64,000 nucleotides of DNA from Candidatus Daviesbacteria bacterium. GTDB lineage: Bacteria; Patescibacteriota; Microgenomatia; Daviesbacterales; UBA10151. The DNA is taken from contig JACOXH010000003.1 in the NCBI GenBank assembly GCA_016176415.1, forward strand, positions 12,419-76,418, read 5' to 3'. The position numbers were made by a program, and so were the translations under genes. Under the pieces are notes generated by a model. The model worked only from the letters and a program-made list of their open reading frames with translations, did not search any database and was not told where the DNA came from. Of this stretch, positions 10,149 to 36,412 are shown one piece after another (the stretch's first letter is position 1; each line of letters starts with the position of its first letter).

Positions 10149-11492
10149 ATGGAGAGAACATTAATTTTAGACTGTAATGAGAAAATTGATCAAACAGTAC
10201 ATATTTGTGGTTTTGTGCAAGTCAGGCGCGATCACGGAAAAATTGTATTTTTAGACATAGCTGACAGATCTGCTGTTATTCAGGTGGTAATATCGTCAGA
10301 TGCAATCCACCTCGAAGGAGTCAAAGCCCACCTTCGAGGTGATATTAGGCCGCAGGATGTTGTCTGTATAACAGGAAAAGTTAATAAACGCCCCGAACAC
10401 TTAATAAATAAAAATATCCCTACAGGCGGTATTGAGATTTTTGCTGAGAGTATTGAAGTTTTGTCAAAAGCATCAGAATTACCTTTTGACATGGGCGGAA
10501 AGGATCTGGATCTGCAGCTTCCCACTTTGCTGGATTACCGTTCTTTAACTTTGCGTCACCCAAAAATAAAATCAATTTTTAAAGTGCAGTCTGCAATTTT
10601 AGAAGGTTTTAGAAAAGCAGTAAAAGAGATTGGGTGTACTGAAATTGTAGTGCCCACTATTGTGGCAGGTTCTACAGAAGGAGGGGCAGAAGTGTTTAAA
10701 GTAGATTATTTTGAACACAAAGCATATTTATCCCAAAGCCCGCAACTTTATAAACAAATGTTGATACCGGTATTGGAAAGAGTGTTTACCATTGCCAAAG
10801 CATACAGAGCAGAACCTTCAGTCACAACCAGACATTTAACAGAGGTAACTCAAATGGATGTGGAAATTGGATTTACCAACTTTGAGGAACTATTGGATAT
10901 TTTGGAAAATACTGCCACAAATATGTTGGAGTTTTGCCAAAAAGAATGCGAAGATATTTTATCTGAATTTGGAGTGGAAAAAATTAGTATTGGAAAAATT
11001 CCCAGACTTACTTTAAGAGAAGCACAAGAGTTAATTTTAAAAGAGTTTGGCCGTGACAACAGAAAAGAGAAAGATTTAACACCGCAAGATGAAATTGATC
11101 TTTGTAAGTGGGCCAAAGAAAAACACGACAGTGATTTTGTGACGGTGACTCATTTTCCAACTAATGCCAAGCCTTTTTATACTATGCCTGACCCCAAAAA
11201 TCCTGAATATTCTCTAAGTTATGATTTGCTTTTCAGGGGGGTTGAGGTAATGAGTGGTAGTCAAAGGATTAATGATTATGGGCAGCTGGTAGATTCTATT
11301 AAAGGAAGGGGCATGGATCCGGATAGTTTTGAGATGTATCTTCAGGCTTTTAAATACGGCATGCCTCCTGAAGGAGGATTTTCTTTCGGTTTGGAAAGAG
11401 TAACAATGCATGTATTAAATCTTGCTAATATCAGAGAAGCTTCACTTTTTCCCAGAGATATGGAAAGAGTAGATACTAGATTAAGTAAGTGA
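10149..11492 (+). CDS. aspS: Class IIb aspartyl/asparaginyl-tRNA synthetase (archaeal/type-2 AspRS-like)
   Basis: N-terminal OB anticodon-binding domain. Class II motifs 'FRAE', 'GGFSFGLERV', C-terminal 'FPRD'. Size ~447 aa fits type-2 AspRS/AsnRS. Confidence 0.75.
   Translation: MERTLILDCNEKIDQTVHICGFVQVRRDHGKIVFLDIADRSAVIQVVISSDAIHLEGVKAHLRGDIRPQDVVCITGKVNKRPEHLINKNIPTGGIEIFAESIEVLSKASELPFDMGGKDLDLQLPTLLDYRSLTLRHPKIKSIFKVQSAILEGFRKAVKEIGCTEIVVPTIVAGSTEGGAEVFKVDYFEHKAYLSQSPQLYKQMLIPVLERVFTIAKAYRAEPSVTTRHLTEVTQMDVEIGFTNFEELLDILENTATNMLEFCQKECEDILSEFGVEKISIGKIPRLTLREAQELILKEFGRDNRKEKDLTPQDEIDLCKWAKEKHDSDFVTVTHFPTNAKPFYTMPDPKNPEYSLSYDLLFRGVEVMSGSQRINDYGQLVDSIKGRGMDPDSFEMYLQAFKYGMPPEGGFSFGLERVTMHVLNLANIREASLFPRDMERVDTRLSK
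10307..10341. repeat. REP-like hairpin copy (CCACCTCGAAGG-AGTCAAAGCCCA-CCTTCGAGGTG) in-frame in aspS
   Basis: Same loop and outer stem as 4284-4321 copy. Inner stem GGGG/CCCC replaced by AAGG/CCTT (compensatory). Confidence 0.7.
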
Positions 11493-12413: not shown

Positions 12414-13465
12414 TATTGGTCAGGAACAGCTGAAACATAAGCCATAAATTGAGGCCCTTCAAAGATAAAAATCGGCTGGAGGTAGGGACTGTAATTTTGA
12501 GGTAAGTAGTAGCCTAAGCTGACAGAAGAGATGGAAACCTGAGGCTTTTCCGGTTCAATAATAACTACCCCTTTACCGCTTTTTAAATCCTCAAACGCTA
12601 AGGCAGTATCTTTAAGAGGGTAGGTGGCAAAGGTAGAGGCGTCTATCGGATGATAGGTAAAATCCAGTGACAAATAATTGTCTATTTGAGAAGAGCTTCC
12701 CAAAACAACAGCAGTAACCAGGGATTCATCGGATCTGGCTGTTAGAACAGGCTTGCCGTCTACTGAATTTGGCCATAAAGAGATTTGAGCAGCCTGCGCT
12801 TCAGATCTGATTTGAGTAGGAATTAAAGCATTTTGAAATATTTTAAATAATACAACTTTATCTCTGCCTGCAGCCAGATCGTCTTTTATCATCCCCAAGG
12901 TAGCAAGAATAGATTTAAATCCTGAAACCAAACTGGTGTTATCGCTCAGACTTTCTTTAGCTGAAGGAGAAGATTCATTGGTATAGGAAAAATTCCCGTT
13001 ATCCAAATCTACAAAAAGGGTTTTATCGTTTTGAGAGAATTGATATTGTGTTTCACTTAAAATTTGCGGTTGTTCGGTTATGTCAAATTGCCGGGCTAAA
13101 TTTGTGGAACGGTCTGGTGAAAGCAGTGTGGCAAAAGACCGGGTAATAAAATAAACTTTGATCAGTTTTTCAAAACCCTCATCTTGTCCTATGCGCGGCA
13201 GGCCGCCTGTGACAGTATCCAAAGAATAGGAAAAGTTGGAGGAGGAAACAGAGACTTTGGGGAAGTCAATTGGAGGAAGTGTCCCGAATTTGAGATCAGG
13301 TTTTTCTTCAACAGGGGGCAAATTTGCCAGGTAGTATGCATGCCAAACGTTGTAGCCTATCAAACCCCCAATCAACAGCACCAAACCAATCACTGTAAAT
13401 ACAATGATTTGTCTTGTTAAAATGGCAGTTTGAGTCAGGGTCATGGGCGTACTGTTATTATACAA
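12389..13465 (-). CDS. Hypothetical membrane-anchored protein
   Basis: 358-aa ORF with N-terminal TM; no family recognised. Confidence 0.4.
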   Translation of the reverse strand: MYNNSTPMTLTQTAILTRQIIVFTVIGLVLLIGGLIGYNVWHAYYLANLPPVEEKPDLKFGTLPPIDFPKVSVSSSNFSYSLDTVTGGLPRIGQDEGFEKLIKVYFITRSFATLLSPDRSTNLARQFDITEQPQILSETQYQFSQNDKTLFVDLDNGNFSYTNESSPSAKESLSDNTSLVSGFKSILATLGMIKDDLAAGRDKVVLFKIFQNALIPTQIRSEAQAAQISLWPNSVDGKPVLTARSDESLVTAVVLGSSSQIDNYLSLDFTYHPIDASTFATYPLKDTALAFEDLKSGKGVVIIEPEKPQVSISSVSLGYYLPQNYSPYLQPIFIFEGPQFMAYVSAVPDQYQGQSKLE

Positions 13466-13488
13466 GAATGAGGGATATAATGATTGCT

Positions 13489-14802
13489 ATGAAAATAAAA
13501 ACAAGATTTGCTCCCTCTCCAACAGGCATGATGCATATCGGAGGAGTGAGAACTGCTCTATACGCCTGTCTGGTTGCCAGAAAAAATGGCGGGATGTTTT
13601 CCTTAAGAATAGAAGATACTGACAGATACAGGTTTGTGCCTGAAGCTCAGGAAGACATAATTGCCGGTCTTAAATGGCTGGGGTTGGAATTTGACGGAGA
13701 ACCTATTATTCAGTCAGAAAGAAAAGATTTGTATCAGAAATATGCAAAAGAATTAGTGGATAAAGGTTTGGCTTACGAGAGTGACGGGGCTGTCTGGTTT
13801 AAGATGCCAAAAGAGGGAGAGGTTAGGTTTAAGGATTTAATCGGTGAAAGGGAAGTGGTTTTTAATTTGGCAGATCAAAAGGATTTTGTACTTTTAAAAT
13901 CTGACGGTTTTCCCACATATCATCTGGCTCATGTGGTTGATGATCATTTGATGGAAACAAATCCGGTAATCAGGGGAGATGAGTGGCTGCCTTCAATTCC
14001 AAAACATATTTTAACTTTTAAAGCCTTTGATTGGGAGATTCCCTCTTATGCTCATCTGCCTTTGATTGTGGGAACTGACAGAGCAAAACTTTCCAAAAGA
14101 CACGGGGCCAAATCAGTGGGAGAATTCAGAAAAGACGGATTTTTGCCTGAAGCAATTTTAAATTACATGGCGCTTTTGGGCTGGACCCCACCAAATGATA
14201 AAGAAATTTTAAGTTTTGAAGAGATGGTGAAATTATTTGATTTAAAAGATGTGCACTGGGCTCCTGCTGTTTTTGATGTTACAAAACTGGAATGGATGAA
14301 TGGGGAGTATATCAGGAAATCTCAAAACTCAAATCTCAAAACTCAAATCTCAAATTATTTAAAAGATTTGTCAGGGGGAGCTTTGGAGCATCCTACAGAA
14401 GAAGAAATTGAGAAAGTAGTTCCTTTAGTTAAAGAAAGAATTAAAAAATTATCTGATTTTGTGCCTTTAACAGACTTTTTATGGGAAAAGCCGGAATATG
14501 ATCAGTCTCAATTTAAAAAATTAAATATTAAAAATGAAAAAGAAGTACTGGAAAAGGTTTTGGAAAAACTGGAAGAGATGGAAAAACCATGGGATGCTAA
14601 AATATTTGAAGAGACTTTCAGAAAACTGGCTGAGGATTTAGAGTTATCAGCTTCTCAGATGTTTCAGCTGATCAGAGTATCGGTTTCAGGACAAACTGTA
14701 ACTCCACCGCTTTTTGAAAGCATACAAATTTTAGGGGAAGAAGAAACTAAAATCAGGATAAGAGATGCTGTAGAGTTTGTGAAAAATTCCCCCGTTGCAT
14801 AG
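13489..14802 (+). CDS. gltX: Glutamate--tRNA ligase
   Basis: 'FAPSPTGMMHIGGVRTALY' (HIGH) and 'KLSKRHG' (KMSKS). Likely start MKIKTRF at 13489 (track ORF begins 13414). Confidence 0.85.
   Translation: MKIKTRFAPSPTGMMHIGGVRTALYACLVARKNGGMFSLRIEDTDRYRFVPEAQEDIIAGLKWLGLEFDGEPIIQSERKDLYQKYAKELVDKGLAYESDGAVWFKMPKEGEVRFKDLIGEREVVFNLADQKDFVLLKSDGFPTYHLAHVVDDHLMETNPVIRGDEWLPSIPKHILTFKAFDWEIPSYAHLPLIVGTDRAKLSKRHGAKSVGEFRKDGFLPEAILNYMALLGWTPPNDKEILSFEEMVKLFDLKDVHWAPAVFDVTKLEWMNGEYIRKSQNSNLKTQISNYLKDLSGGALEHPTEEEIEKVVPLVKERIKKLSDFVPLTDFLWEKPEYDQSQFKKLNIKNEKEVLEKVLEKLEEMEKPWDAKIFEETFRKLAEDLELSASQMFQLIRVSVSGQTVTPPLFESIQILGEEETKIRIRDAVEFVKNSPVA
14320..14356. repeat. 2.6 tandem copies of 14-mer TCTCAAAACTCAAA inside gltX
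   Basis: Seen directly. Translates 'KSQNSNLKTQISN'. Confidence 0.6.
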
Positions 14803-15180: not shown

Positions 15181-15216
15181 TTTATACAGGTAAAAATTGG
15201 TATAATTTCCATGCAT

Positions 15217-15287
15217 TGCGGGATCATCTAACGGTAGGATACATGCCTCTGGAGCATGGCATCTTGGTTCAAATCCAAGTCCCGCAA
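15217..15287 (+). tRNA. tRNA-Gln (anticodon CUG)
   Basis: Manual fold: acceptor TGCGGGA/TCCCGCA, D-loop with GG, anticodon stem CATGC/GCATG with loop CTCTGGA (U33, anticodon CTG), T-arm CTTGG-TTCAAAT-CCAAG, discriminator A. CCA not encoded. Confidence 0.75.
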
Positions 15288-15365
15288 CCCTTCGACTTTG
15301 GTTCGACTACTTCGACTCCGCTCAGTACAGGAACGCTCACCATCGCTCAGGGTTATAACCCTGAT
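15288..15365. repeat. Family-2 repeat cluster immediately 3' of tRNA-Gln (TTCGACT x3, CGCTCAG x2, palindrome CAGGGTTATAACCCTG)
   Basis: Direct reading; related copies at 22061-22106 (inverted), 40438-40457, 6067-6117, 49731-49756. Confidence 0.55.
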
Positions 15366-15385
15366 AAATGTACTATACTTACTTA

Positions 15386-15691
15386 ATGAGTAGGTCGAAG
15401 GGCTGTTATACTGTTTATATTCTTAGGACCTCTGCTAATACACTGTATATTGGTCAAACTAATAATTTAGAAAAAAGGCTAAAAGAACATCAAAATAAAT
15501 CTTCCAAATCTGCCAAATATATTAAATATTTTGATTCTTTTCGATTGGTTTACTCAGAACAATACCCTACCAGAATTGAAACAATGAGAAGAGAATATCA
15601 ACTTAAACATTGGTCAAAAGCTAAAAAAGAAGCATTAATTTCCGGTAACGTGCAATTAATAAAATTGCCAAAACTGCAACAGCCACAATAA
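15386..15691 (+). CDS. GIY-YIG nuclease-family small protein
   Basis: 'YTVYILRTSANTLYIGQTNNLEKRLKEH' is the GIY-YIG motif. Likely start MSRSKGCY (track ORF starts 15368). Confidence 0.7.
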   Translation: MSRSKGCYTVYILRTSANTLYIGQTNNLEKRLKEHQNKSSKSAKYIKYFDSFRLVYSEQYPTRIETMRREYQLKHWSKAKKEALISGNVQLIKLPKLQQPQ

Positions 15692-16046
15692 GCCAAACCA
15701 TATAACCATAATAGCAGATATAATAAATTGATTTGTGGCATGGCAGTGAGCACCCGTCCTGAACTTGCTGAAGGATGTTGAATGGGCTATAGTACTGAGT
15801 GAAATCGAAGTGCTAAAATAAGGCAAGAAAATATGGGATTAAATGAAGCAGATACAAGAATACAATTAATGACTCTAATTCTAATGCTTGTGATTGGTAT
15901 GAGTACCTTATTACAGTTTCTGGAAAATCAAAAGCTGGATGATGAACCTGTAAAAACACCATTCACGCCTATCTTTGCAACGACAAGTTCTAACTACAGT
16001 GGTACTGCTAGTGGCACAACTACCACTTTGTAGGTAAAATAAAAAA

Positions 16047-17714
16047 ATGGCACAACTACAATTTAAAGGAAAACAATTTGTACAAAATCATCATTTATCT
16101 GTTCCTTATCATGAGTTGATTCCCAAAAAGGATAAAAGTTTAACGGATAAAGTTAGCTTGCATGATAATTTAATTATTCATGGTGATAATCTAAAGGCAT
16201 TAAAAGCCTTACTCCCCACTTACGCTGGTAAAATCAAATGTATTTATATTGATCCTCCATATAACACAGGTAATGAGGGATGGGTTTACTCCGATAATGT
16301 TAATTCCCCAATGATTCAGGAATGGCTGAAGGCAAATAAACCAGTAGACAACGAAGACCTAACCCGTCATGACAAATGGCTTTGTATGATGACTCCACGA
16401 CTTAAACTTCTTAGAGAGCTACTAAAAGATGATGGTGTAATTTTTGTATCAATAGATGACAACGAAGTTCATCACTTACGAATGTTAATGGATGAAATTT
16501 TTGGAGCGGAAAACTTTATAGCCATACTTCCTACGATAATGAACCTAAAAGGAAATCAGGATCAATATGGTTTCGCTGGAACGCATGAATATATTGTTGT
16601 ATTTGCTAATTATAGAGATAAGTCTAAGGTAGGAGAGTTTAGTTTAAATAATTTAGAGGAAGAGGGGTGGGAGGAAGACGAGGTTAGTTATTTTAAAAAG
16701 GGCGCAAATCTAAAATCTTCAGGGGTTAATGCGCCTCGAGAGAAGAGACCCAACCTTTACTTTCCTATTTATATTACAAAGGATAACAATATTATCCTAA
16801 ATAGATCTTCTAAAGATGACTTAGAAATTTTCCCAGTTACTGACGGAAAAGAAATGTGTTGGCGATGGAGTAAAGAGAAAATGAAAAGCGAAACTTATGA
16901 TTTAATGGTTGCAAGAGAGGGGGATGTAGTTAGCATATACAAGAAACAGAGACCAGAATTAGGTGAGCTGCCCTCTAGAAAACCAAAATCACTATTTTAT
17001 AAACCGCAGTATAGTAGCGGTAATGGAACCAATCAAATAAAAACAATTTTTGGGGAGAAGGTTTTTGACAATCCTAAACCGCTTGAACTAATCAAAGATA
17101 TATTATCCATTTCAACTGACTCTGATTCAATAGTTTTGGATTCCTTCGCTGGCTCAGGAACTACAGCTCATGCTACGCTTGTCTTAAATAAAGAAGATGG
17201 TGGTAATCGTAAATTTATACTCGTTGAACTTGAAGATACTGTAGCAGATAAAATTACTGCTGAAAGAGTAAAAAAAGTTATCAAAGGTGTTCCAAGAGCG
17301 AGGAATGAGAATCTTAAAAATGGATTAGGTGGGACTTTTAGTTATTTTGAACTTGGGAAACCGATTGAGTTAGAAAGTATTCTTTCAGGAAGTAACTTAC
17401 CTACGTATAAAGAATTAGCTAGGTATGTATTTTATACTGCAACCGGTGAAGAATTTGACGAGAGTAAAGTTGATGAAGAGAAAAATTTTATTGGAGAAAG
17501 CAAAGATTATGAAGTCTACTTATTTTATAAACCGGATTTAGATTATCTTAAAAATACTGCATTAACTTTAGACCGTGCCAGATCTTTGGGTAAGCACAAC
17601 GGCAAAAAACGTCTTATTTTTGCTCCTGCAAAATATTTAGATCAAGATCATTTAGATGAACTAAGAATAGACTTTGCCCAGTTACCTTTTGAGATTTACA
17701 AACTAGCTAAATAA
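16047..17714 (+). CDS. mod: Type III restriction-modification system methyltransferase (Mod), N6-adenine/N4-cytosine beta-class
   Basis: Motif IV 'IYIDPPYNTG' precedes motif I 'DSFAGSGTTAHA'. 555 aa. Confidence 0.85.
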   Translation: MAQLQFKGKQFVQNHHLSVPYHELIPKKDKSLTDKVSLHDNLIIHGDNLKALKALLPTYAGKIKCIYIDPPYNTGNEGWVYSDNVNSPMIQEWLKANKPVDNEDLTRHDKWLCMMTPRLKLLRELLKDDGVIFVSIDDNEVHHLRMLMDEIFGAENFIAILPTIMNLKGNQDQYGFAGTHEYIVVFANYRDKSKVGEFSLNNLEEEGWEEDEVSYFKKGANLKSSGVNAPREKRPNLYFPIYITKDNNIILNRSSKDDLEIFPVTDGKEMCWRWSKEKMKSETYDLMVAREGDVVSIYKKQRPELGELPSRKPKSLFYKPQYSSGNGTNQIKTIFGEKVFDNPKPLELIKDILSISTDSDSIVLDSFAGSGTTAHATLVLNKEDGGNRKFILVELEDTVADKITAERVKKVIKGVPRARNENLKNGLGGTFSYFELGKPIELESILSGSNLPTYKELARYVFYTATGEEFDESKVDEEKNFIGESKDYEVYLFYKPDLDYLKNTALTLDRARSLGKHNGKKRLIFAPAKYLDQDHLDELRIDFAQLPFEIYKLAK

Positions 17715-17723
17715 CCAGATAAT

Positions 17724-17942
17724 ATGGCACGAGTAACTTTTAATTCAATTTTTATTCAACACCCTGATGGAAGCCTAGAACCGAGACAACGTATAAGAAT
17801 AAGTGGTATTGAATTGGGTCCTGGCGTCAGATTTACTAGAGGCGCATCCTTCGCTGGCATAGATTTTACTCAATTCATAGGTAGAGATTTGGATATTGGT
17901 ATTGGCGATGGAGGGATAGTTATTATTAAAGGAATTTATTAG
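17724..17942 (+). CDS. Hypothetical small protein between mod and res
   Basis: 72-aa ORF, tight spacing. Confidence 0.3.
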   Translation: MARVTFNSIFIQHPDGSLEPRQRIRISGIELGPGVRFTRGASFAGIDFTQFIGRDLDIGIGDGGIVIIKGIY

Positions 17943-17944
17943 AA

Positions 17945-18283
17945 ATGGCAAAGAGTAGACCAGAAATTGTTATATCTTCGGGTAAAAAAGATCAACCTGC
18001 AGTTAAATTACCACCAGACCCCAATCAAATTATAGCTGATAGATATGATTTTCAGACAAAGATAATACTTGCAATTTTTGTGATAGCTTTCATTACAATG
18101 ATAGTTATGGTTGCTACTCTTGTGATAGACTCATTTCATATAAATTCAACAATTTATAAAGAATATTCGGATAAAAATGATGTAATAAAAAGTCTACAAG
18201 AAAGCAATAAAATTCTTTTAGAAACCGTTCAGCAAAACCAAAAAATTATAGAAGAATTTATTAATAAAAATTCTAAACAATAA
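17945..18283 (+). CDS. Hypothetical membrane-anchored coiled-coil protein between mod and res
   Basis: 112 aa; TM 'ILAIFVIAFITMIVMVATLVI', C-terminal helical region. Confidence 0.35.
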   Translation: MAKSRPEIVISSGKKDQPAVKLPPDPNQIIADRYDFQTKIILAIFVIAFITMIVMVATLVIDSFHINSTIYKEYSDKNDVIKSLQESNKILLETVQQNQKIIEEFINKNSKQ

Positions 18284-18285
18284 AT

Positions 18286-20769
18286 ATGGAACTTAAGGAA
18301 TATCAGCAAAAAGCATTAAAGCAGGTTAGATCATTTTTGACTGTTTTATCAAATGAAGTTAAAGCAGGGAATTTAAAACATGCTTCTGAAGATGCATGGG
18401 AAGCTATTGAACTGAAAAGTTATACAGAAAGCAGAAACGGGCTAGATAAAGACCTTCCAAATTTTTGTTTAAAAATTCCAACGGGTGGAGGAAAAACGCT
18501 GCTTGCCGTTAGGGTTATTGACCTTGTTAATCAAATTTATTTGCAAAAAAGAAATGGTTTAGTGCTTTGGATTGTACCGACAACTCAAATCTATAACCAA
18601 ACCATTAAAAATTTAAGGAATAAGGAGCATCCCTACAGACAATATCTTGACATAGCCAGTGGCGGGAAAACTTTGATTATAGAAAAGACAGAAAAGTTTA
18701 CCCCTTTAGATATTGAGGAAAACTTAGTGGTTTTAATGTTAATGCTGCCTTCGGCTTCCAGAAGTAATAAAGAAGCACTGAAGGTTTTTAGGGATAGTGG
18801 TGGTTTTACCGACTTTTTTCCTGGGGAAGATGATAGAAAAGGTCAACAAGAACTTCTTGCAAAGGCACCTAATTTAGATGCCTTTGGAGATGATCAGGAT
18901 TTTTGGGGAAGGCAAATAAAAACTTCTTTAGGAAATGTAATTAGAGTACTTAACCCTTTAGTAATTTTAGATGAAAGCCACAAAGGTAAAAGTCCAATCG
19001 CAGAGGATACATTATCTAATCTTAACCCTTCAATGGTGGTTGAATTATCTGCTACACCACACGAAGAAAGTAATATTTTGGTGGATATTTTAGGGAAAGA
19101 ATTGAATCAGGAAGAAATGATTAAGTTGGACTTGCATGTAATTAACAAAGCAAGTACTGAGTGGAAAAATACCATGCTTGCCAGTAAAGATAAACTGGAT
19201 TTGCTGGACCAAAAGGCAAGAGAACATGAAGCAAATACAGGGGTTTATATAAGGCCTATTTGTTTAATTCAGGCGGAGAGAACCGGAAAAGATCAAAGAG
19301 ACGGCAGGTATATACATTCAGAAGATGTTAAGGAATATTTAATTAAAGGCCTGGGAATACCGGAGGAGGAAATAGCAATTAAAACCAGTGAAAAGGATGA
19401 GCTGAAACAAATTGATGATATTGGCGGTTTGATGTCTAAAGATGCCAAGATTCGCTATATTATTACAAAACAGGCGTTGCAAGAGGGATGGGATTGTGCA
19501 TTTGCTTATGTATTAACAATATTAACAAATCCATCCTCTAGAAATGCTTTAACTCAGCTGGTTGGAAGAATTTTGAGACAGCCTTATGCCAGAAAAACAA
19601 AAGTTGAGGCATTGGATGAGAGTTATGTTTTTTGTTTTCAGCAAAGAGGTACTATTTTACTGGACGAGATAAGAAAAGGTTTCGGTCAAGAAGGATTGGG
19701 AGATCTGCAAAGTAAGGTAACAATAAGCGAAGAAGCAGAAGCAAGGGATAAAGAAAAGAAAACTTATGCAGTTAGAGATAGGTTCAAAGGGTTAGTAGAT
19801 GATGTTATTCTGCCATTTTTTCTTACCAAAGATATGGATAATTGGAGATTAATTGAGTATGAAACAGATATTTTAATTAATGTGGACTGGAAAAAAGTCA
19901 ATCTTAAAGAGCTTTTCAATTTAAGTTTATCTACCTCAGAAGAACAGGATAAGGAGCATATAACCAATCTTTCAGAAGATGTTAAGGAGTTAATAGAGCA
20001 GAAACAGATAATCCGTTTAAAAGAGGGTGGTTTAGTCCTGGATCCTGTATTCATAGCCCGACAATTATTGGAAATAATACCTAACCCTTGGATGGCCTAT
20101 GAGATAGGAGAAAAAGTTTTGTCTAATTTGCATAAAAAGTATGATATCAAACGCATAATTAATAATTTAGTTTTTATTATTGAAGAGACGAAAAAACAAT
20201 TAGAACGGGAACGTGACAGATTAGCACAAGAGGAATTTATGAAACTACTTGTAGTAAAAAGGATTAAGTTTATGGTTGCCGGAAACAATATAGGGTTTAA
20301 GATAAAGAAGGAATACAAAGCTAATGTCAATGCAAGAAGGCTAAATAATCAGGATGGAGCGCCCCTGCAGAAAAGTCTGTTTGAATTTTTAGAAGAGGAT
20401 GAATTAAATGAGGATGAGAAGAGTGTGGCTTGGTATTTAGAGGAGCAAGAGAAATTGCTTTTTTGGTATAGGAATTTAGCAAGAACAGATTATCCAATAC
20501 AAGGCTGGAGAAAACAAAAAATTTATCCGGACTTTGTTTTTACAAGTTCAGAAGACCAGAAAGATATTGATGAAATCTTTGTGGTTGAAACTAAAGGTAT
20601 ACATTTGAAGGAAAGTGATGATACTAAGTATAAAAGGTCAGTCCTGGAGATATGTAATACCCAAGCAAAATCTGAAAGTTTTATAAAGTTGTTTGGAGAT
20701 AAAAAAATTCATTATGAATTAGTATACGGGGATGAATGGGAAAGAAAACTAAACGAGTTATTAAGCTGA
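18286..20769 (+). CDS. res: Type III restriction endonuclease Res subunit (SF2 helicase + nuclease)
   Basis: Walker A 'KIPTGGGKTLLA', motif II 'VILDESHKG', helicase C-terminal motifs. 827 aa. Confidence 0.85.
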   Translation: MELKEYQQKALKQVRSFLTVLSNEVKAGNLKHASEDAWEAIELKSYTESRNGLDKDLPNFCLKIPTGGGKTLLAVRVIDLVNQIYLQKRNGLVLWIVPTTQIYNQTIKNLRNKEHPYRQYLDIASGGKTLIIEKTEKFTPLDIEENLVVLMLMLPSASRSNKEALKVFRDSGGFTDFFPGEDDRKGQQELLAKAPNLDAFGDDQDFWGRQIKTSLGNVIRVLNPLVILDESHKGKSPIAEDTLSNLNPSMVVELSATPHEESNILVDILGKELNQEEMIKLDLHVINKASTEWKNTMLASKDKLDLLDQKAREHEANTGVYIRPICLIQAERTGKDQRDGRYIHSEDVKEYLIKGLGIPEEEIAIKTSEKDELKQIDDIGGLMSKDAKIRYIITKQALQEGWDCAFAYVLTILTNPSSRNALTQLVGRILRQPYARKTKVEALDESYVFCFQQRGTILLDEIRKGFGQEGLGDLQSKVTISEEAEARDKEKKTYAVRDRFKGLVDDVILPFFLTKDMDNWRLIEYETDILINVDWKKVNLKELFNLSLSTSEEQDKEHITNLSEDVKELIEQKQIIRLKEGGLVLDPVFIARQLLEIIPNPWMAYEIGEKVLSNLHKKYDIKRIINNLVFIIEETKKQLERERDRLAQEEFMKLLVVKRIKFMVAGNNIGFKIKKEYKANVNARRLNNQDGAPLQKSLFEFLEEDELNEDEKSVAWYLEEQEKLLFWYRNLARTDYPIQGWRKQKIYPDFVFTSSEDQKDIDEIFVVETKGIHLKESDDTKYKRSVLEICNTQAKSESFIKLFGDKKIHYELVYGDEWERKLNELLS

Positions 20770-20904
20770 TAAACTGTACGACCTAACGCCAGAGGAGATT
20801 AAAATTGTGGAGGTTAATACAAAATAACTTTTTATTTAAAGGCAAAACAAAGGGGAAATAAAGGAGAGGCTCTTGTTGAAAGTGTTTTATCTGAACATGC
20901 AATA

Positions 20905-21483
20905 GTGCATAAAATCGATGGTTCAAAAGATGTTGGTATTGACATGATTTGTGAGTGGGTTAATGGAGAAAAACCAACACAAATAATGTTCGGAGTTCAG
21001 GTTAAAACTTTAAACATAAAACTTACGCCCAGAAGGGAAAAAAGTAAAAGAAATTTCTTAGAGGAATACGAGGGAAATGTCTCAATCAAACAAACAACCC
21101 TAGGTTATTGGAAAGGCTTTGATTTTCCAGTTTTTGTATTTTTAGTAGATCTAAAAAATTCAAAAATTTATTTCAAAAGGTATACTTCAATTGTTCATAG
21201 TTTAATAAAACATACAAAGGAACCTTTTTATCTGGTAACAGAAAATGGTAAGTTTCAAGCTTATGTCCAAGGAAAAGAGCATACATTTGGATTTTGTCGG
21301 GATTTATTTTTTGATCACCTTCGTTGTCAACACAATAAAGGCATATTAAGCGGAATAGATCCTAATGATTTAGACTTAAGGGGTTGGACTAAAGAAGCTC
21401 TTTATAAAGGGGTGTTTGATCAATACAAAGACAAAATCCGCGCTACATATAGAAGGTATCAAAAATGGAGCAAGTTTTTTTAA
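20905..21483 (+). CDS. Hypothetical protein with putative PD-(D/E)xK nuclease-like motif (D..GID...VQVK)
   Basis: 'DVGIDMICEW...FGVQVKT' resembles a restriction-endonuclease-fold core. GTG start. No confident family. Confidence 0.4.
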   Translation: MHKIDGSKDVGIDMICEWVNGEKPTQIMFGVQVKTLNIKLTPRREKSKRNFLEEYEGNVSIKQTTLGYWKGFDFPVFVFLVDLKNSKIYFKRYTSIVHSLIKHTKEPFYLVTENGKFQAYVQGKEHTFGFCRDLFFDHLRCQHNKGILSGIDPNDLDLRGWTKEALYKGVFDQYKDKIRATYRRYQKWSKFF

Positions 21484-21543
21484 GTAAACTCTACGGCCTG
21501 AATTCAGAGAAAATTAAGATTCTAGAAAATAACATATAAAAAA

Positions 21544-21942
21544 ATGAACAATTCTGACAGGTCACAGCTCTACAAAGAAGAGATTAAATTTATTTTCAGC
21601 AGAAAAGGATCCGATGTAAGGCGTGCGACAGTGATCTCTGCATTTATAGAATGGCAGATATTCTCTTTAGCAAGTCATTTTCTAGAGAAACGGAAGGTCG
21701 CACATAAGCCAGAACCTAATCAAGAATACAATCAGTCGTTTAATGTTTTAAAAGTAAATAAAATACTTGCGTTGATAGAACTTGAAAAAATACAAAAATT
21801 CCGCAGAGAAAGAAATAAATCTATCCACAGCATATTTAAAGGTATGACACGTATTGAATGGGAAAGACAAAATAAACTCGTAATAGAACTCGGGAGACCT
21901 ATTGTGAAAGCACTTGATAAGAAACTATATTCGTTAACGTAA
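21544..21942 (+). CDS. Hypothetical protein (partner of preceding ORF)
   Basis: 132-aa ORF, RBS-spaced, no family recognised. Confidence 0.4.
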   Translation: MNNSDRSQLYKEEIKFIFSRKGSDVRRATVISAFIEWQIFSLASHFLEKRKVAHKPEPNQEYNQSFNVLKVNKILALIELEKIQKFRRERNKSIHSIFKGMTRIEWERQNKLVIELGRPIVKALDKKLYSLT

Positions 21943-22060
21943 TTATTTAGGAATGGCGTACAATTGGGATTGATTAATTTAGCTTCCCACCCTCCAGGTA
22001 TTATAACTTCACACCCGCCAAAGGCGGGCAAGCCTGGGGAGTTTTATTAATAGGACAACT

Positions 22061-22106
22061 CATTCGAGTCTGAGCGACGAGGTCGCTAGACCTCAGAGTC
22101 GAAGAC
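22061..22106. repeat. Family-2 repeat copy, inverted relative to the copy at 15288-15365
   Basis: CTGAGCG...AGTCGAAG core. Imperfect palindrome TCGAGTCTGAGCGAC / GTCGCTAGACCTCAGAGTCGAA. Confidence 0.5.
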
Positions 22107-22172
22107 CACCTGTCCCATTAGGCTGCTGTTGATGTTTACAATTTGTATTAAATCTGTAATGATGTATATAAA

Positions 22173-22673
22173 GTGAAACTGCCTGTAAATATCTTTAAAC
22201 TGGTTGCATCTATTGCCCTTTGCCAGTCTGCCGGGATAATAGGCTCTTTTTTTACTGTTTCTTCCATCTCAAACTGGTATAACTTACTAAATCAGCCCTC
22301 ATTTAGACCTCCAAACTTTCTTTTTGGTCCTGTTTGGATAACACTTTATACCCTTATGGGCATCTCCTTTTACTTAATCTGGATTAAATTAGGAGATAAA
22401 AAATACAGTAAAAAAGCAAAACTCATAAAGCTGTCCTTAGTAATTTTTTTAATACACCTCTTCTTTAATGCCACCTGGTCAATTGTCTTTTTTGGCTTAC
22501 ACAATATCTTTTTAGCTCTAATAAATATTCTGGTTATCTGGGTGTTTATAGTGATTTTGATTAGTAAGTTTTGGAGTTTAGATAAAAGAGCATCTGTTCT
22601 GCTGATTCCATACCTGGCTTGGGTAAGCTTCGCCACCATCTTAAACTACAGCATCTGGATTTTAAACAGATGA
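22173..22673 (+). CDS. tspO: TspO/MBR family tryptophan-rich sensory protein
   Basis: 5-TM protein with 'PSFRPPNFLFGPVWITLYTLMG' and 'LLIPYLAWVSFATILN'. Confidence 0.8.
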   Translation: MKLPVNIFKLVASIALCQSAGIIGSFFTVSSISNWYNLLNQPSFRPPNFLFGPVWITLYTLMGISFYLIWIKLGDKKYSKKAKLIKLSLVIFLIHLFFNATWSIVFFGLHNIFLALINILVIWVFIVILISKFWSLDKRASVLLIPYLAWVSFATILNYSIWILNR

Positions 22674-22703
22674 AACTTTAAAATTTTTAGCTTCATACTG
22701 AAA

Positions 22704-23264
22704 TTACTCGGTTTTGCCGGTGAGGAGAGCGTCAATAATATCATGAGGTAACGCGGCAGCATTAAGTAAAGCTTTTCGAACGATTCCACCTGTTTCTGAT
22801 CCTATTTCATCTGCTGCCCTAAGGGTTCCCATTACCGCGCTCCTGGCCAGTTCTCCTGAGTCTGCACCAATGTCGCCTGCTGCTTTAATTGCTCCCTGTA
22901 CAGAAGATATAGCCACTTCTCCTACATCTTCACCAACTTTAGAGGCTGTTCTAACAGCTTGTGAAGCTGCTTCTCCTGCCGCTTCCGTGGTATTTACACC
23001 TGTATCTTTTGCTCCATCAATAACTCCTCTTACCAAACCTGTAACTCCATCAGTCAGGGATGCTCCTGTTGAGGAGACAGCTTCTAAACCTTCACCTACT
23101 ACATCATCAACAGTTTGAAGGCCTGTGACAGCTACATCTCCCGCTCCAGATATAAGTTTGACAACATTTTTCCTGGCTACATCCTGAACAGTTGAGGCAA
23201 CATCACCGGCACCGGATACTACAGAAGAAAGAGCATTTTTTAAATCATCAGTCAAATTTGCCAT
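22704..23264 (-). CDS. Gly/Ala/Asp/Val-rich repetitive protein
   Basis: Repeats of 'GAGDVA.TG / GE.AS.AV / G.D.G' units; no TM. Confidence 0.5.
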   Translation of the reverse strand: MANLTDDLKNALSSVVSGAGDVASTVQDVARKNVVKLISGAGDVAVTGLQTVDDVVGEGLEAVSSTGASLTDGVTGLVRGVIDGAKDTGVNTTEAAGEAASQAVRTASKVGEDVGEVAISSVQGAIKAAGDIGADSGELARSAVMGTLRAADEIGSETGGIVRKALLNAAALPHDIIDALLTGKTE

Positions 23265-23563
23265 TATAATTACACTAACACAACAAAAACTTTCCTGTCA
23301 ACTAAAAACCATTTTTCATTTAACACATATGGTAAATTATTAGTATGAAGGAATTTATTTTTTTGCTATATTTTAAGCGGCTGATTTGTTTGCTGAAGTA
23401 AATCACAATAATAATTTGTAAAAGGGCAGCCATGTAAACCCCCAAAAGCGAGAAAAAATTTCGTTGTTGTCTCCTAAAAAAAGAGGTATCAAAACTACTG
23501 AATCATCCAGGTAAGTAATAAAAGAAATGACAAATGAACAATAGCTTTCAAATTTTGCAGGCT

Positions 23564-23821
23564 TTAAGCCTGCAAAAGTTTATAAACCCGCATAAAAATC
23601 CAGCCGATCACCCAGGCAGTAACACCTGATGAGATTAAACCGGTGATAACAGATGATGCGGTGATCTCTAGGGCAGCTGTTTTAGTCAATTCTATACCAT
23701 GAAACCATGACCGGGCTACGGCAAAAGAAGCGTCAGGGAATAAAGCTACCAAAATCAGACATGCCACATATACAATAGCAGTAGTTACGGCTAAAGCATT
23801 CGGAATTACGTACGCTTTCAT
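23564..23821 (-). CDS. Small membrane protein
   Basis: 85 aa, 2-3 TM. Confidence 0.4.
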   Translation of the reverse strand: MKAYVIPNALAVTTAIVYVACLILVALFPDASFAVARSWFHGIELTKTAALEITASSVITGLISSGVTAWVIGWIFMRVYKLLQA

Positions 23822-23825
23822 ATTC

Positions 23826-24497
23826 TCACCTCCTTACTGTTAATTTAATACCCAAAAGATATTCATAAATTGGCCCAAGTAGGGCTCCGACTCCAAATGC
23901 CCAGACAATCTCCTCAAGAGGAACACCTAAAATAATAAGTCCTGAAAGATTATTTATATTCCAATGCATGATAAAGTCAGGGATGAAGAAAGCAAATATT
24001 GAAAAGAACAGGAAATAAAAAAGCCCAAAGAGTAAGCCTGAATAAATAACTTTTTTTATAAGGTCTGGTCTGGTAACAGCGATAAGGGCAATATTTATTA
24101 TTATCCCGATATATACAGCATACATGAAGTTTATCTTAAATATTGTGTATGTCAGGAAGATAGCTATTACACCTGTCCCTAAAAGCAAGCCATGGAAAAT
24201 TCCTCCATTAAAACAATCACAAAGCCTTTGATGTTTAACCCTACCCTTCATAAATAGTTCATAAATTACTGCTACTATGCCGCCTACAGCAAAGGTAAAG
24301 ATAAAGTCTTCTATAGAAAGCTTGGGATTGCCAATAGTATCGGGAAGCCAGTAGCCGGGAACAAAGAAGACTTCGGATAAAGCGGCAGGAGTAACAATAA
24401 GGCTTGCTATGAGCATTTCTTTTCTTAATTTCTTTTGAGAAATAAAAATTAAAAGCCAAATGGCAAGTAGAAGCAGTGAGCCGAGCAGATAGTGCAT
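23826..24497 (-). CDS. Multi-TM protein, possibly lycopene-cyclase-domain (CrtYcd-like) family
   Basis: 'GVPLEEIVWAFGVGALLG' resembles the PxEE motif of the lycopene cyclase domain. Weak call. Confidence 0.35.
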   Translation of the reverse strand: MHYLLGSLLLLAIWLLIFISQKKLRKEMLIASLIVTPAALSEVFFVPGYWLPDTIGNPKLSIEDFIFTFAVGGIVAVIYELFMKGRVKHQRLCDCFNGGIFHGLLLGTGVIAIFLTYTIFKINFMYAVYIGIIINIALIAVTRPDLIKKVIYSGLLFGLFYFLFFSIFAFFIPDFIMHWNINNLSGLIILGVPLEEIVWAFGVGALLGPIYEYLLGIKLTVRR

Positions 24498-24522
24498 ATA
24501 TTTAGTGTATCATCATAATTTT

Positions 24523-25923
24523 TCAGATACAGCAACTTAATTTAGAGATATCCTTAGTAAAGGATAAGGCGGCAATTTTAATAGCCTCTGAAAGAGTCGG
24601 AAACATGGGTAAAGAATTTATCACATCATCAATTGTATTTTTGTTTTTAATTAGCATCATGGCTTCTGCAATAAGTTCTCCAGCATTGGGAGCTAAGATA
24701 TGCACACCCATAATCTGTTTTGTTTCAGGATGGATAGCCATTTTAATAAGTCCTTCTGTACGATTTAGGATTAATGCTTTTGGGACATCTTTGAAAGATA
24801 CAGTCTTGCACATACACGTACCAAATTTTTCCATTTGTTCATCTTCTGTAAAACCCACTCCTGCAAGCTGCGGATCAGTAAAAATAGTCCAGGGGGCACT
24901 TTTATAATCTATGCTATTTTGAGTATTCTTTAAAGCATTTTCTGTGGCCAGTGTTCCTTCCCGTCCGGCCGTTGTTTCAAGACGAAGCGGAGCATTCGTG
25001 ACATCTCCCACTGCATAAATATGAAGTTGTGAAGTTTGGAATTGTGCGTTTACTTTTATCGCCTGCTTCTCATCAATCTCAACGCCTGCCTTATTAAGAG
25101 CTAATCTTTCGGTATTTGGAGTTTTGCCTACAGCCAGTAAGATCTCCTGTCCTGATATTTCTTCCTGCTGATCGTGAGTTTTGTAAGTAACAATCTTTTT
25201 GTTTCCCTCTTTTCGGGCACTCTTTACCTGAATATCTGTTTTAATAGTAATTCCTTCGTTGGTAAGTATCTCGGTGAGTCTTGTTGTTAATTCTTCTTCT
25301 CCCCGGAAAATGGATGGTCCCCGATGAAGAATGGTAACTTTCGTTCCAAAACGGGCATACATCTGGGCAAACTCAAGTCCTACCGGACCAGCTCCTATAA
25401 CAATAAGTTCTTTGGGTTGCTGCTTCATTTTCAAAGCCTCAATATGCGTTACAAAACCGGTCTCCTTTATGCCTTCAATTGGCACAACAGTTGCAGTCGA
25501 ACCGGTCGCAACAATAAACTTTCCGGCAGTATACTTTTGTCCATTAACTTCTATCTCACTTGAAGAAACAAAGCTTGCTTTTCCTTCTACATAAGTAATA
25601 TTTTCTAACTGGCTTAATACTTTTTCGTATTTTTCATTCCTAAGTTTTGTTACTAAATCAAGTTCGTGTTGGATAACTGTAGCAAAATCAAAGTTTTTAA
25701 CCTTAATTTCTAATCCCGGAATACCATGATTTCTTGCCTGATGCATTACTTCGCCTGCCCAAAGAAGAGTTTTTGAAGGTACACAGCCTACATTTACACA
25801 AGTACCACCAAGAGGTAGGCCCTTATTCACCATTAAAGTTTTTGCACCAAGTTCATTTGCTTTGATAGCTGATGCAAAAGCTCCTGCACCCCCACCGATA
25901 ATAATTAAGTTATATTGCTCCAT
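24523..25923 (-). CDS. merA: Mercuric reductase MerA (core, no N-terminal HMA domain)
   Basis: FAD motif 'IIGGGAGAFASA', redox disulfide 'GGTCVNVGCVPSK', NAD motif 'VIGAGPVGLEFAQ', C-terminal vicinal Cys 'KLSCCI'. True start at MEQYN (25923); track ORF extends to 26070. Confidence 0.7.
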   Translation of the reverse strand: MEQYNLIIIGGGAGAFASAIKANELGAKTLMVNKGLPLGGTCVNVGCVPSKTLLWAGEVMHQARNHGIPGLEIKVKNFDFATVIQHELDLVTKLRNEKYEKVLSQLENITYVEGKASFVSSSEIEVNGQKYTAGKFIVATGSTATVVPIEGIKETGFVTHIEALKMKQQPKELIVIGAGPVGLEFAQMYARFGTKVTILHRGPSIFRGEEELTTRLTEILTNEGITIKTDIQVKSARKEGNKKIVTYKTHDQQEEISGQEILLAVGKTPNTERLALNKAGVEIDEKQAIKVNAQFQTSQLHIYAVGDVTNAPLRLETTAGREGTLATENALKNTQNSIDYKSAPWTIFTDPQLAGVGFTEDEQMEKFGTCMCKTVSFKDVPKALILNRTEGLIKMAIHPETKQIMGVHILAPNAGELIAEAMMLIKNKNTIDDVINSLPMFPTLSEAIKIAALSFTKDISKLSCCI

Positions 25924-25963
25924 CTTGACACATACCCCCCAGGGGTGTATATTAACAGAATAT

Positions 25964-26233
25964 ATGAAAAGCAGTATGGATGTCAAGCAAGAGGAGCGTA
26001 AGAGGATAAATATCATCAAAGGGCAGCTGGATGGCCTTTTGAAAATGATTGAAGAAGATAAATACTGCATTGATGTGTTAAATCAAAGCCTGGCTATTCA
26101 AAATTCCATCAAAAGTCTGGATTCTTTAATTTTGGAAAAACATTTAAAAACTCACGTTGCAGATCAGTTTAATAAAGAAAGAGAAAAAGCAGTTGAGGAA
26201 CTTTTAAAGCTTTTCGGGAGAATACACCAATAA
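25964..26233 (+). CDS. csoR: CsoR/RcnR-family metal-sensing transcriptional repressor
   Basis: '[37 protein letters not shown]...LEKHL' is the DUF156/CsoR fold with Cys ligand. Start MKSSMDV at 25964. Confidence 0.75.
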
Positions 26234-28326: not shown

Positions 28327-28342
28327 AAAGAAAGGAGGAAAT

Positions 28343-28534
28343 ATGTTTGGACTTTTCGGCGGAGTAAAAGACCCGGTTTGCGGGATGAAGGTGGATAAAA
28401 AAAGCCAGTTCTCGACAGAGTTTAAGGGCCAAAAGTATTACTTTTGTTCTGAAAATTGCTTAAATCAGTTTAAAGGAGCTCCGGAAAAATATGTCACTGT
28501 TCAAAGCAATCATTCCCAGAGTTGCTGCCACTAA
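28343..28534 (+). CDS. YHS/TRASH-domain metal-binding protein
   Basis: 'DPVCGMKV...YYFCSENC' is the YHS/TRASH signature. Confidence 0.7.
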   Translation: MFGLFGGVKDPVCGMKVDKKSQFSTEFKGQKYYFCSENCLNQFKGAPEKYVTVQSNHSQSCCH

Positions 28535-28560
28535 AGTATTTTTTTTGGTAAAATTAAGCA

Positions 28561-29475: not shown

Positions 29476-29476
29476 A

Positions 29477-31848: not shown

Positions 31849-31887
31849 ATAATCAGTTTAGCATAAGTAATACTACAATGTGTAGTA

Positions 31888-33003: not shown

Positions 33004-33006
33004 AAA

Positions 33007-36150: not shown

Positions 36151-36157
36151 AGTTTAA

Positions 36158-36394: not shown

Positions 36395-36412
36395 CCCCTT
36401 TCGTAATACTAC

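Follow-up and report, generated by a model that had tools for sequence, protein, structure and literature searches.

The DNA directly 3′ of the tRNA-Gln(CUG) gene in a genome of Candidatus Daviesbacteria (assembly GCA_016176415.1, contig JACOXH010000003.1, positions 12,419 to 76,418; this 64-kb stretch is termed the window, and coordinates are those of the window unless a related locus is named) carries a small GIY-YIG nuclease gene, a Type III restriction-modification (R-M) system and short hairpin repeats. Comparison with relatives and base composition support the view that this DNA is horizontally acquired, variable and compositionally distinct from its surroundings. The locus is probably a mosaic of modules with separate histories, in which the repeats mark miniature elements of the nuclease itself and not the ends of an island. 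The first module would be a GIY-YIG cassette from 15291 to about 15811, with a folded leader of hairpin units before the gene and an inverted unit after it; the second, a five-gene Type III R-M unit (15833-20769; p66, mod, p72, p112 and res); the third, a probably decaying DUF4365 gene together with an orphan open reading frame (ORF), p132; and the fourth, a solo hairpin repeat at 22063-22103. Together, 15291-22110 would form the tRNA-proximal third of an integrase-free region located between gltX-p115-tRNA-Gln and the riboflavin operon. Because the leader occurs with the GIY-YIG gene and tRNA-Gln, and its units are dispersed and inserting, the repeats are not considered to be island ends, as which an initial annotation of the window had interpreted them.

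Proteins encoded in the window were scanned with Pfam, NCBIfam and PADLOC, and tRNAs were identified with ARAGORN and Rfam. The locus was compared with related loci (designated by L numbers), including about 80 anchored on gltX, and 41 related loci were scanned for tRNAs. The closest relatives by GltX, at 70-82% identity, are other Candidatus Daviesbacteria, which belong to the Microgenomates of the Candidate Phyla Radiation (CPR).

A GIY-YIG Nuclease Gene Beside tRNA-Gln

The GIY-YIG gene recognized in the initial annotation was confirmed by domain search (Table 1). The PF01541 domain spans residues 13-87 of the 107-aa ORF, and the protein ends about 15 residues beyond it. The best match in the Protein Data Bank (PDB) is 1zg2 (UPF0213 protein BH0048; 3.8e-13), and another UPF0213 protein, 1ywl, is also matched. 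Homologues (n = 2288) are 83-151 aa long, most commonly 90 aa, and occur in several CPR phyla; the best 120 of them have identities of 69-85% and come from Woese-, Levy- and Blackburnbacteria, WWE3 and other CPR groups.

The position of the gene is conserved across these lineages. At least five CPR lineages encode proteins of 76-87% identity beside tRNA-Gln, and GltX proteins of CPR groups that share this GIY-YIG clade are 40-52% identical to one another. In all nine contexts of the clade (≥76% identity), tRNA-Gln lies 5′ on the same strand, and in seven of these nine independent CPR contexts the GIY-YIG gene begins 72-180 nt past the tRNA, with or without restriction genes. The same arrangement was found in 4/4 independently fetched loci (Woesebacteria, WWE3, Blackburnbacteria and one other bin), in which tRNA-Gln (CUG or UUG) is located 80-173 nt upstream and the remaining neighbours are unrelated. 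The leader and the GIY-YIG gene occur without R-M genes in at least six other contexts. Most Daviesbacteria loci have no GIY-YIG gene at tRNA-Gln, and the identity of the protein is discordant with phylogeny, being 85% in L182 and 78% in the Daviesbacteria locus L022. No relevant literature linking a GIY-YIG protein with tRNA-Gln, REP sequences or UPF0213 was found.

TTCGACT occurs three times and GCTCAG twice as units of the leader, which also includes the palindrome GGGTTATAACCC. Its predicted RNA fold has an energy of -38.6 kcal/mol (z -4.5; z -3.9 when folded as DNA), with a predicted closing helix in which 15288-15297 pairs with 15393-15402; for the leader of L162, the predicted z of the closing helix is -3.8. 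Leaders of this type start with (GA)TTCGACTC after the tRNA and finish with GAGTCGAAGG at the ribosome-binding site or start codon, and these two ends pair. The junction at which a tRNA ending in CCA is followed by (GA)TTCGACT is kept in L002, L022, L162, L172, L180 and L182. The leader is present only in loci in which the GIY-YIG gene follows tRNA-Gln; in L013 and L016, in which the gene is 3.0 and 4.3 kb from the tRNA, there is none. No Rfam family matched the leader.

Transcription of the GIY-YIG gene would start from the tRNA promoter, and no promoter-like site was seen between tRNA-Gln and the gene in the window. A second GIY-YIG clade, about 40% identical, is located on the other side of the tRNA, 3-10 nt 5′ of tRNA-Gln in L016, L020, L021, L042, L045 and L080, and at tRNA-Asn in L087. 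In L020, L021, L042 and L045, the gene of the second clade comes after the tRNA promoter and a duplicate of the local tRNA's initial 12-13 nt; L080 has a degenerate version of the 5′ half of the tRNA instead. The duplicate is followed in L020, L021 and L045 by a hairpin, CCCCGCTAAGCGGGG, that resembles the NTS repeats of the Ssn nucleases discussed below. The order of the second clade, in which a hairpin, the ORF and a complete tRNA follow one another, speaks in favour of the tRNA transcription unit being used.

An improbable explanation of this distribution is that the cassette is itself the mobilising agent, that is, a homing-type selfish element that cuts cassette-free tRNA-Gln loci, is copied in by repair and drags cargo with it (the R-M genes here, Fic in L002), seeding integrase-free islands. 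This would account for the patchy presence at a fixed junction, for the similarity of the protein across lineages whose GltX sequences are far more divergent, and for the tRNA 3′-end remnants that lie beyond the cassette in L162 and L163 (14/16) and, as seen by eye, beyond the cassette and Fic in L002. The duplicated tRNA start in the second clade points in the same direction, and a precedent exists in SegB of phage T4, a GIY-YIG homing endonuclease encoded in a tRNA gene cluster (PMC2330249). However, the protein consists of a catalytic domain of about 90 aa without the DNA-binding domain of Seg-type and intron homing enzymes, no tRNA-end remnant lies distal to the cargo in the window, the distant leaderless genes of L013 and L016 do not fit, and the co-transfer of cargo is pure inference.

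Hairpin Repeats and Their Dispersal

The block that follows tRNA-Gln is a non-random repeat, as first annotated: the window contains three matches to the 16-mer CTTCGACTCCGCTCAG with ≤3 mismatches (0.1 expected). The leader is composed of units that approximate CCCTTCGACTNCGCTCAGGG, in both orientations, and the units of the family are either 20-mers, with a stem of 4-5 bp and a loop of 12 nt, or doublets of 35-45 nt. In the compared sequence (2.27 Mb), the 16-mer core has 50 matches, against 1-3 in shuffled sequence, and close to these GIY-YIG genes (within 400 nt) it shows a 46-fold enrichment (Poisson P ~1e-7), the motif having been defined from the window's own leader. In the window, the repeat is found at four sites.

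One of these sites directly follows the GIY-YIG gene, and its unit is 17/20 identical to a partner in the leader (15309-15328); this variant, CTGAGTG(A/T)AATCGAAG, recurs in L026, L068 and L182. The inverted copy previously assigned to the left block was the sequence at 22061-22106. Its similarity to 15288-15365 is weak and at chance level (local score 31, null maximum 32), and the real partner of 15309-15328 is the unit at 15792-15811. The sequence at 22061-22106 does belong to the family, because its reverse complement matches part of the leader of L180 (Blackburnbacteria) at 41/45 positions, with a score of 60 against 24 for the 99.9th percentile of the null. It folds as RNA at -23.8 kcal/mol (z -2.8) and as DNA with z -3.4, and is best described as a solo miniature hairpin.

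The fourth copy, of 35 nt, is inserted in the P6 loop of a flavin mononucleotide (FMN) riboswitch (40412-40587, minus strand) upstream of the rib operon. This riboswitch scores 45.6 bits, below the Rfam gathering score of 66.2, because it carries two insertions. The P6 site is empty in L015, L005 and L021, whose FMN riboswitches score 93.3, 91.0 and 90.7 bits, and L004 has an identical 35-nt insert in P6. The existence of filled and empty sites directly demonstrates that the repeat unit inserts. The copy near 40440 had been considered as part of the expression platform of the riboswitch, which is ruled out by its location in the P6 loop. The second insert of this riboswitch (about 40550-40572, in P2/P3) is a different hairpin, TTGAAGTTG-ATTTA-CAACTTCAA. 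Another family of short repeats, CACC(C/T)(C/T)CGAGGTG palindromes (TCCACCTCGGGGGAGTCAAAGCCCACCCCCGAGGTG and related sequences), is found at 4286-4326, 10306-10346, 58985-59022 and 59701-59738, and is presumably the other repeat family of the initial annotation.

An enzyme acting in trans on the repeats had been suggested, with an integrase or a Y1 transposase as candidates. The suggestion is apt, but no Y1 (HUH) transposase of the IS200/IS605 type is present among the scanned ORFs of the window, and the likely candidate is the adjacent GIY-YIG nuclease. By analogy with the Ssn nucleases, it would recognize the hairpins on single-stranded DNA (ssDNA).

It is very improbable that nothing at the locus is specifically mobile, in which case tRNA-Gln would have in the GIY-YIG protein an ancient housekeeping partner under strong constraint, the hairpins would serve as ordinary terminators or processing signals, and loci would differ through differential loss. 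Such an explanation would suit the very high conservation of the protein, its fixed place beside one tRNA in many lineages, and the occurrence of hairpins at intergenic spots where terminators are expected. It is contradicted by the lack of the gene at this tRNA in most Daviesbacteria, by the discordance between identity and phylogeny, and by the precise insertion of a hairpin in a riboswitch loop that is empty in relatives. Furthermore, no U-tracts follow the hairpins, a terminator scan of 14.7-22.8 kb yielded one site only, and the Res family described below is scattered over phyla.

The Type III Restriction-Modification Module

The mod and res genes of a Type III R-M system, which in general methylates an asymmetric site by Mod and translocates along and cuts unmodified DNA by Res together with Mod, are present, as first annotated, and both are intact (Table 1). 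In the translation of Mod, motif IV (IDPPYNT, at about residue 69) lies ahead of motif I (DSFAGSGTT, at about residue 355), and the target recognition domain occupies the stretch in between. When compared with the proteins of L183 and L185, Mod is 78-96% identical over residues 1-150 and 60-90% identical over residues 351-555, and only 10-38% identical over residues 151-350, which is the usual pattern of specificity exchange by a swapped target recognition domain. Res contains the motifs PTGGGKT, LDESH and PDF...VETKG. A phmmer search of Res against solved structures in the PDB gave no match. Three relatives encode Res proteins that are 82-85% identical, and the rest are 54-61% identical and derive from many phyla and one archaeon (those named being Desulfobacteria, Omnitrophota, Ignavibacteria, CPR groups and the archaeon). 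Among metagenomic sequences, 80 loci encode a Res of 53-81% identity, and in most of these mod lies 7 bp ahead of it.

Both genes are on the plus strand, mod first, and are separated by a two-gene cassette of 570 bp, where most relatives have a gap of 7 bp. This cassette encodes p72 and p112. Homologues of p72 number 57, and a gene of 92-111 aa follows p72 in 8/8 loci fetched (the p72/p112 loci being L184, L185 and L186-L193). The cassette occurs in three kinds of context, namely Type III operons, a neighbourhood of RadC, MazG-like and SLFN-like helicase genes in Doudnabacteria, and the gap between a thioredoxin-reductase-like gene and enolase. An AlphaFold2 (AF2) model of p72 (pLDDT 87) is a small beta barrel, and a fold search of the model against the PDB gave no match at E ≤ 0.001. 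In L085, L115, L117, L120, L127, L132, L146, L152 and L191, the mod-res junction is also the insertion site of small cassettes, which in relatives encode an IrrE/ImmA-like protein (helix-turn-helix and peptidase) with DUF4411/PIN, MNT with HepT, KilA-N or DUF3800, some of them being toxin-antitoxin-like pairs.

The extent of the module is defined by its relatives. L185 has the order p66-like, mod, p72-like, p112-like and res, and L184 has the same order from mod onward; downstream of res, the genes differ wherever contigs extend past it (L082, L183 and L184). Since the unit is kept in three closely related contigs and the downstream flanks differ, the module corresponds to 15833-20769. From its sequence, it is an intact and ordinary new member of the Type III systems with unusual small accessory genes. 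A guess that p66 might be a remnant of the HsdR N-terminus, made from the string NEADTR, was dropped, because the orthologue in L185 is full-length and shares the layout of a membrane protein.

Downstream of res, the window differs from its relatives. The initial annotation counted four hypothetical ORFs in the segment; there are five beyond the GIY-YIG, mod and res genes, and one of them is a nuclease-like DUF4365 gene. The first 25 or so residues of its domain are in frame, with no ATG, GTG or TTG before 20905; the gene is probably damaged at its 5′ end and decaying. No counterpart of it was found downstream of res in L082, L183 or L184, and no homologue of p132 was found in any compared locus.

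The tRNA-Gln Hotspot and the Limits of the Variable Region

The order gltX-p115-tRNA-Gln is kept in Daviesbacteria, the upstream block of lysS-like, dacA-like, p358, gltX, p115 and tRNA-Gln genes is conserved in about 40 related loci, and tRNA-Gln was found at the same position in 17 of the 41 loci scanned for tRNAs. The tRNA-Gln gene of the window encodes CCC at its 3′-end (15288-15290), in place of the CCA of relatives, and a gene for a CCA-adding enzyme is located at 3118-4539 on the minus strand. The variable DNA begins at 15291, directly past the tRNA, where relatives hold other content or none. The first genes of the window past the tRNA with orthologues in relatives are ribD and the remaining riboflavin operon. 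In L004, tRNA-Gln is just 22 nt from ribD, and gaps of 0.9-6.6 kb with varied content separate the two genes in L021, L019, L005, L015, L013, L027, L016 and L047, compared with 22.5 kb in the window. The riboflavin operon thus lies 0-6.6 kb past tRNA-Gln in about ten related Daviesbacteria, which implies that the variable region extends over 15291-37788 (22.5 kb) and that tspO is not part of the backbone. Consequently, of the two flanking genes that had been regarded as housekeeping, gltX holds its place as a conserved flank; tspO is present (PF03073, 1.2e-48) but has no orthologue at the locus in the approximately 80 gltX-anchored loci searched, and an exact search with the TspO sequence gave no record. 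The adjacency of gltX, tRNA-Gln and tspO expected in genomes without the island was not observed in these loci.

In the part of the region beyond the hairpin, counterparts of genes in related loci are p186 (L008 and L027) and CsoR/CopA (L030) only. The distal portion (24523-37758) contains a metal and redox gene set, with genes for a flavoprotein disulfide reductase, CsoR, a CopA-type P-type ATPase with a heavy-metal-binding domain, an M10 peptidase, AhpC/TSA, DsbD, YibE/F, DUF3105, thioredoxin-like proteins and a BlaR1/BlaI-like pair.

Various kinds of DNA occupy the corresponding site in relatives. L008 has a large serine recombinase gene (3120-4445) adjoining tRNA-Gln, L002 has Fic-MerR at the same tRNA-Gln site, and L042 has a different mod/res pair (17180-19734; 33% and 26% identical) 5-7 kb downstream of tRNA-Gln, which indicates that R-M genes were captured at the hotspot more than once. 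Remnants of the tRNA 3′-end were detected downstream of inserted DNA by a 16-mer search in L005 (11903-11918), L162 (4507-4522) and L163 (706-721), and were spotted by eye in L047 and L002 (about 13440-13500). The differing content and these remnants identify the site as a genuine hotspot. In the window itself, the final 16-23 nt of tRNA-Gln, which a distal attachment (att) site would be expected to repeat, have no other copy in the 64 kb at ≤3 mismatches, and GGCACCCNNNGTGAYCGT, which follows tRNA-Gln in several relatives, is absent. The similarity of 21940-22175 to the post-tRNA sequences of L005, L047, L020, L008 and L002 is limited to the 17-nt hairpin CACCCGCCAAAGGCGGG.

The guanine-plus-cytosine (GC) content of 15291-22110 is 0.343, the lowest of all 6.8-kb windows (mean 0.382, standard deviation 0.018) and about 2.2 standard deviations below the mean, compared with 0.386 upstream and 0.392 downstream; a compositional deviation, one of the checks proposed with the initial annotation, was thus borne out. 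The GC content of 22111-37788 is 0.380. All genes from the tRNA onward are on the plus strand in the order GIY-YIG, p66, mod, p72, p112, res, DUF4365, p132 and tspO. No integrase, recombinase or transposase gene, including those of tyrosine or serine recombinases and Y1 enzymes, was found among the scanned ORFs of the window, in agreement with the initial annotation.

These data bear on the interpretation with which the analysis started, namely that 15217-22110 is one defence island integrated as a unit at tRNA-Gln, with the repeats (its Family-2) as att or terminal remnants and the integrase lost or acting in trans. Acquired, variable, R-M-bearing DNA is indeed present 3′ of the tRNA, and the lowest GC content of the window extends across the entire segment, every gene of which is on one strand between family repeats in opposite orientation; in addition, the 3′-end of tRNA-Gln has been used for integration in relatives (the serine recombinase of L008 and the tRNA-end remnants of L005, L047 and L002), and L085 has the order tRNA-Asn, GIY-YIG, mod and res. 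Nevertheless, a single island with these limits is unlikely. The left block is the leader of the GIY-YIG gene and recurs with it where R-M genes are lacking, the relatives of the R-M genes share p66 to res and differ past res, the tRNA 3′-end is not duplicated, the two presumed ends barely resemble one another, the right copy being a solo hairpin, and synteny extends the variable region past tspO to 37.8 kb. The identification of the repeats as att or terminal remnants was abandoned for the same reasons.

Table 1. Coordinates of the features at the tRNA-Gln locus, with strand and supporting evidence.
Feature	Position	Strand	Evidence and remarks
tRNA-Gln(CUG)	15216-15290	+	Resident backbone gene; ARAGORN; Rfam RF00005, 56.5 bits
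Structured modular leader (left repeat block of the initial annotation)	15291-15385	+	Between tRNA and GIY-YIG start; fold and junction conservation
Single-domain GIY-YIG nuclease, 101 aa	15386-15691	+	PF01541, 2.6e-17; UPF0213-like, Ssn-like architecture; alternative start 15368
Inverted repeat unit ACTTCGATTTCACTCAGTAC	15792-15811	-	Directly 3′ of GIY-YIG gene; 17/20 identical to 15309-15328
p66, small predicted membrane protein, first gene of R-M module	15833-16033	+	52%-identical orthologue directly upstream of mod in L185; hydrophobic stretch read from sequence
Type III Mod, beta-class N6-adenine methyltransferase	16047-17714	+	PF01555, 2.1e-36; PADLOC MTase_III, 5.7e-160; EcoP15I Mod (4zcf), 1.9e-43
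p72 and p112, two-gene cassette between mod and res	17724-18283	+	Orthologues at same place in L184 and L185; one predicted transmembrane helix in p112
Type III Res, superfamily 2 (SF2) helicase with C-terminal PD...ExK nuclease motif	18286-20769	+	PF04851, 4.4e-15; PADLOC REase_III, 5.6e-170, residues 45-795
DUF4365 ORF, nuclease-like	20818-21483	+	PF14280, 2e-08
p132, orphan ORF	21544-21942	+	No Pfam, NCBIfam or PADLOC match
Solo miniature hairpin, 41 nt (right copy of the initial annotation)	22063-22103	-	Outer 5-bp stem, 22053-22057 with 22111-22115
Remaining variable region	22111-37788		tspO, p186, lycopene-cyclase-domain protein, flavoprotein disulfide reductase, CsoR, CopA-type ATPase, redoxins, DsbD, YibE/F, BlaR1/BlaI-like pair; Pfam
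ribD	37789-38784	-	Backbone resumes (rib operon); Pfam RibD_C and deaminase
35-nt repeat copy	40437-40471	-	Insert in P6 loop of FMN riboswitch (40412-40587)

Origin and Significance of the Locus

The view that the locus is a mosaic of separately acquired modules is the one favoured here. The most probable route for the arrival of the cargo would be DNA uptake and subsequent recombination, either in the conserved flanks or at the hotspot itself. Several points weigh against this view. The uniform low GC content, the single coding strand, the family repeats at both ends and the gene order of L085 would also fit a single acquisition of 15.3-22.1 kb. The repeat pattern published for the Ssn nucleases, SRM, has no match in the window, and the best solved relatives of the GIY-YIG protein are UPF0213 proteins and not known Ssn members. 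Covariation support for the closing helix of the leader is thin, because the helix is almost invariant. The repeat counts for the source genome cover the 64-kb window, and the compared genomes are species-level relatives.

A more far-reaching possibility, which is rather doubtful, is that the tRNA-Gln-anchored GIY-YIG gene and its hairpins constitute a novel type of element that is autonomous and spreads horizontally. An Ssn-like nuclease residing in the tRNA-Gln transcription unit, with one clade to either side of the tRNA, would propagate its own hairpins of 20-45 nt, even into riboswitch loops, and its cutting of ssDNA at the hairpins during uptake or replication would make the flank of tRNA-Gln a capture site for integrase-free cargo such as the R-M module.

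An island with R-M genes is routine, and the part of the locus that merits the attention of specialists is the pair of repeat and nuclease. The description of the Ssn family dates only from 2025 and concerns mainly Pseudomonadati, and here a related single-domain GIY-YIG protein is accompanied by an unrelated hairpin repeat and has a fixed place beside tRNA-Gln in five or more CPR lineages; for the hairpin, a riboswitch documents both the filled and the empty state of an insertion site. Should the nuclease cut the hairpins, it would provide a testable handle on the gain and loss of DNA without integrases in ultra-small, naturally competent bacteria and a new specificity for ssDNA tools, and would explain odd insertions in structured RNAs of the CPR. 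As a practical lesson, short GC-rich repeats beside tRNAs in these genomes should not be taken for att sites.

Comparison with Known Systems

Among known systems, the closest parallel of the cassette is provided by the Ssn nucleases, such as SsnA of Neisseria meningitidis, a 94-aa single-domain GIY-YIG protein (cd10448); these enzymes cleave ssDNA at cognate hairpin repeats termed NTS/SRM (Chenal et al., 2025; PMC11893778). Such repeats lie 5′ and 3′ of the nuclease gene and are also dispersed in the genome, often by accessory genes, and Ssn modulates natural transformation (PMC11893778). The protein described here resembles them in its single GIY-YIG domain (101 aa vs about 94 aa), in the hairpin repeats on its 5′ (15291-15365) and 3′ (15792-15811) sides and elsewhere (22063-22103 and 40437-40471), and in a host that takes up DNA. 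In contrast, the repeat sequence is unrelated: the SRM pattern HGTCWYN(0-2)YYVSBRHN(0-5)WNVSBRGN(0-2)RNCYNB has 0 matches in the window and beside the GIY-YIG genes of 12 related loci, and the units here are 20-mers or doublets of 35-45 nt. The pattern may be too narrow, since it is not matched by NTS-like hairpins from the second CPR clade either. The strict linkage to the tRNA-Gln transcription unit is a further difference, the word tRNA having 0 occurrences in the paper on Ssn (PMC11893778). The GIY-YIG clade may be a sister of cd10448. Considering the SRM mismatch and the UPF0213 relatives, the cassette is proposed by analogy to work like Ssn, and membership in that family is not claimed.

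The R-M module resembles the Type III systems EcoP15I and EcoP1I in the homology of Mod (Table 1), in the SF2 helicase and PD...ExK motif of Res, in the order of mod and then res on one strand, and in the variable target recognition domain. It differs from them by the accessory genes p66, p72 and p112; L185 retains all three of these, and L184 retains p72 and p112. R-M-bearing islands have already been reported in Patescibacteria (PMC12455944). With tRNA-associated islands, the locus shares accessory DNA 3′ of a tRNA, lower GC content, defence cargo and absence of that DNA from relatives; unlike them, it has neither an integrase nor a direct repeat derived from the end of the tRNA, and it is a mosaic whose conserved bounds are 22.5 kb apart.

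The manner of cargo exchange is reminiscent of the minimal mobile elements of Neisseria, in which, as reportedly described by Saunders and Snyder in 2002, cassettes that often carry R-M genes are swapped between conserved flanks by transformation and homologous recombination. The likeness consists in differing cassettes between the same anchors, the lack of a dedicated recombinase, R-M genes as typical cargo and small repeats nearby. The comparison made here is between species and not between strains, and the mechanism in CPR bacteria is proposed by analogy.

The arrangement of the repeats recalls the repetitive extragenic palindromic (REP) sequences and REPINs, which are dispersed hairpin doublets accompanied by a single-copy gene for a RAYT transposase (Y1/HUH) flanked by inverted repeat copies. 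Dispersed hairpin doublets and a single-copy enzyme gene between inverted copies are common to both, whereas the enzyme here is a GIY-YIG protein and not Y1 (HUH), and the copy number is low, with 4 sites in 64 kb. T4 SegB likewise combines a GIY-YIG gene among tRNA genes with a patchy distribution; it has a DNA-binding part and cuts double-stranded DNA (PMC2330249), whereas the protein described here is the catalytic domain alone.

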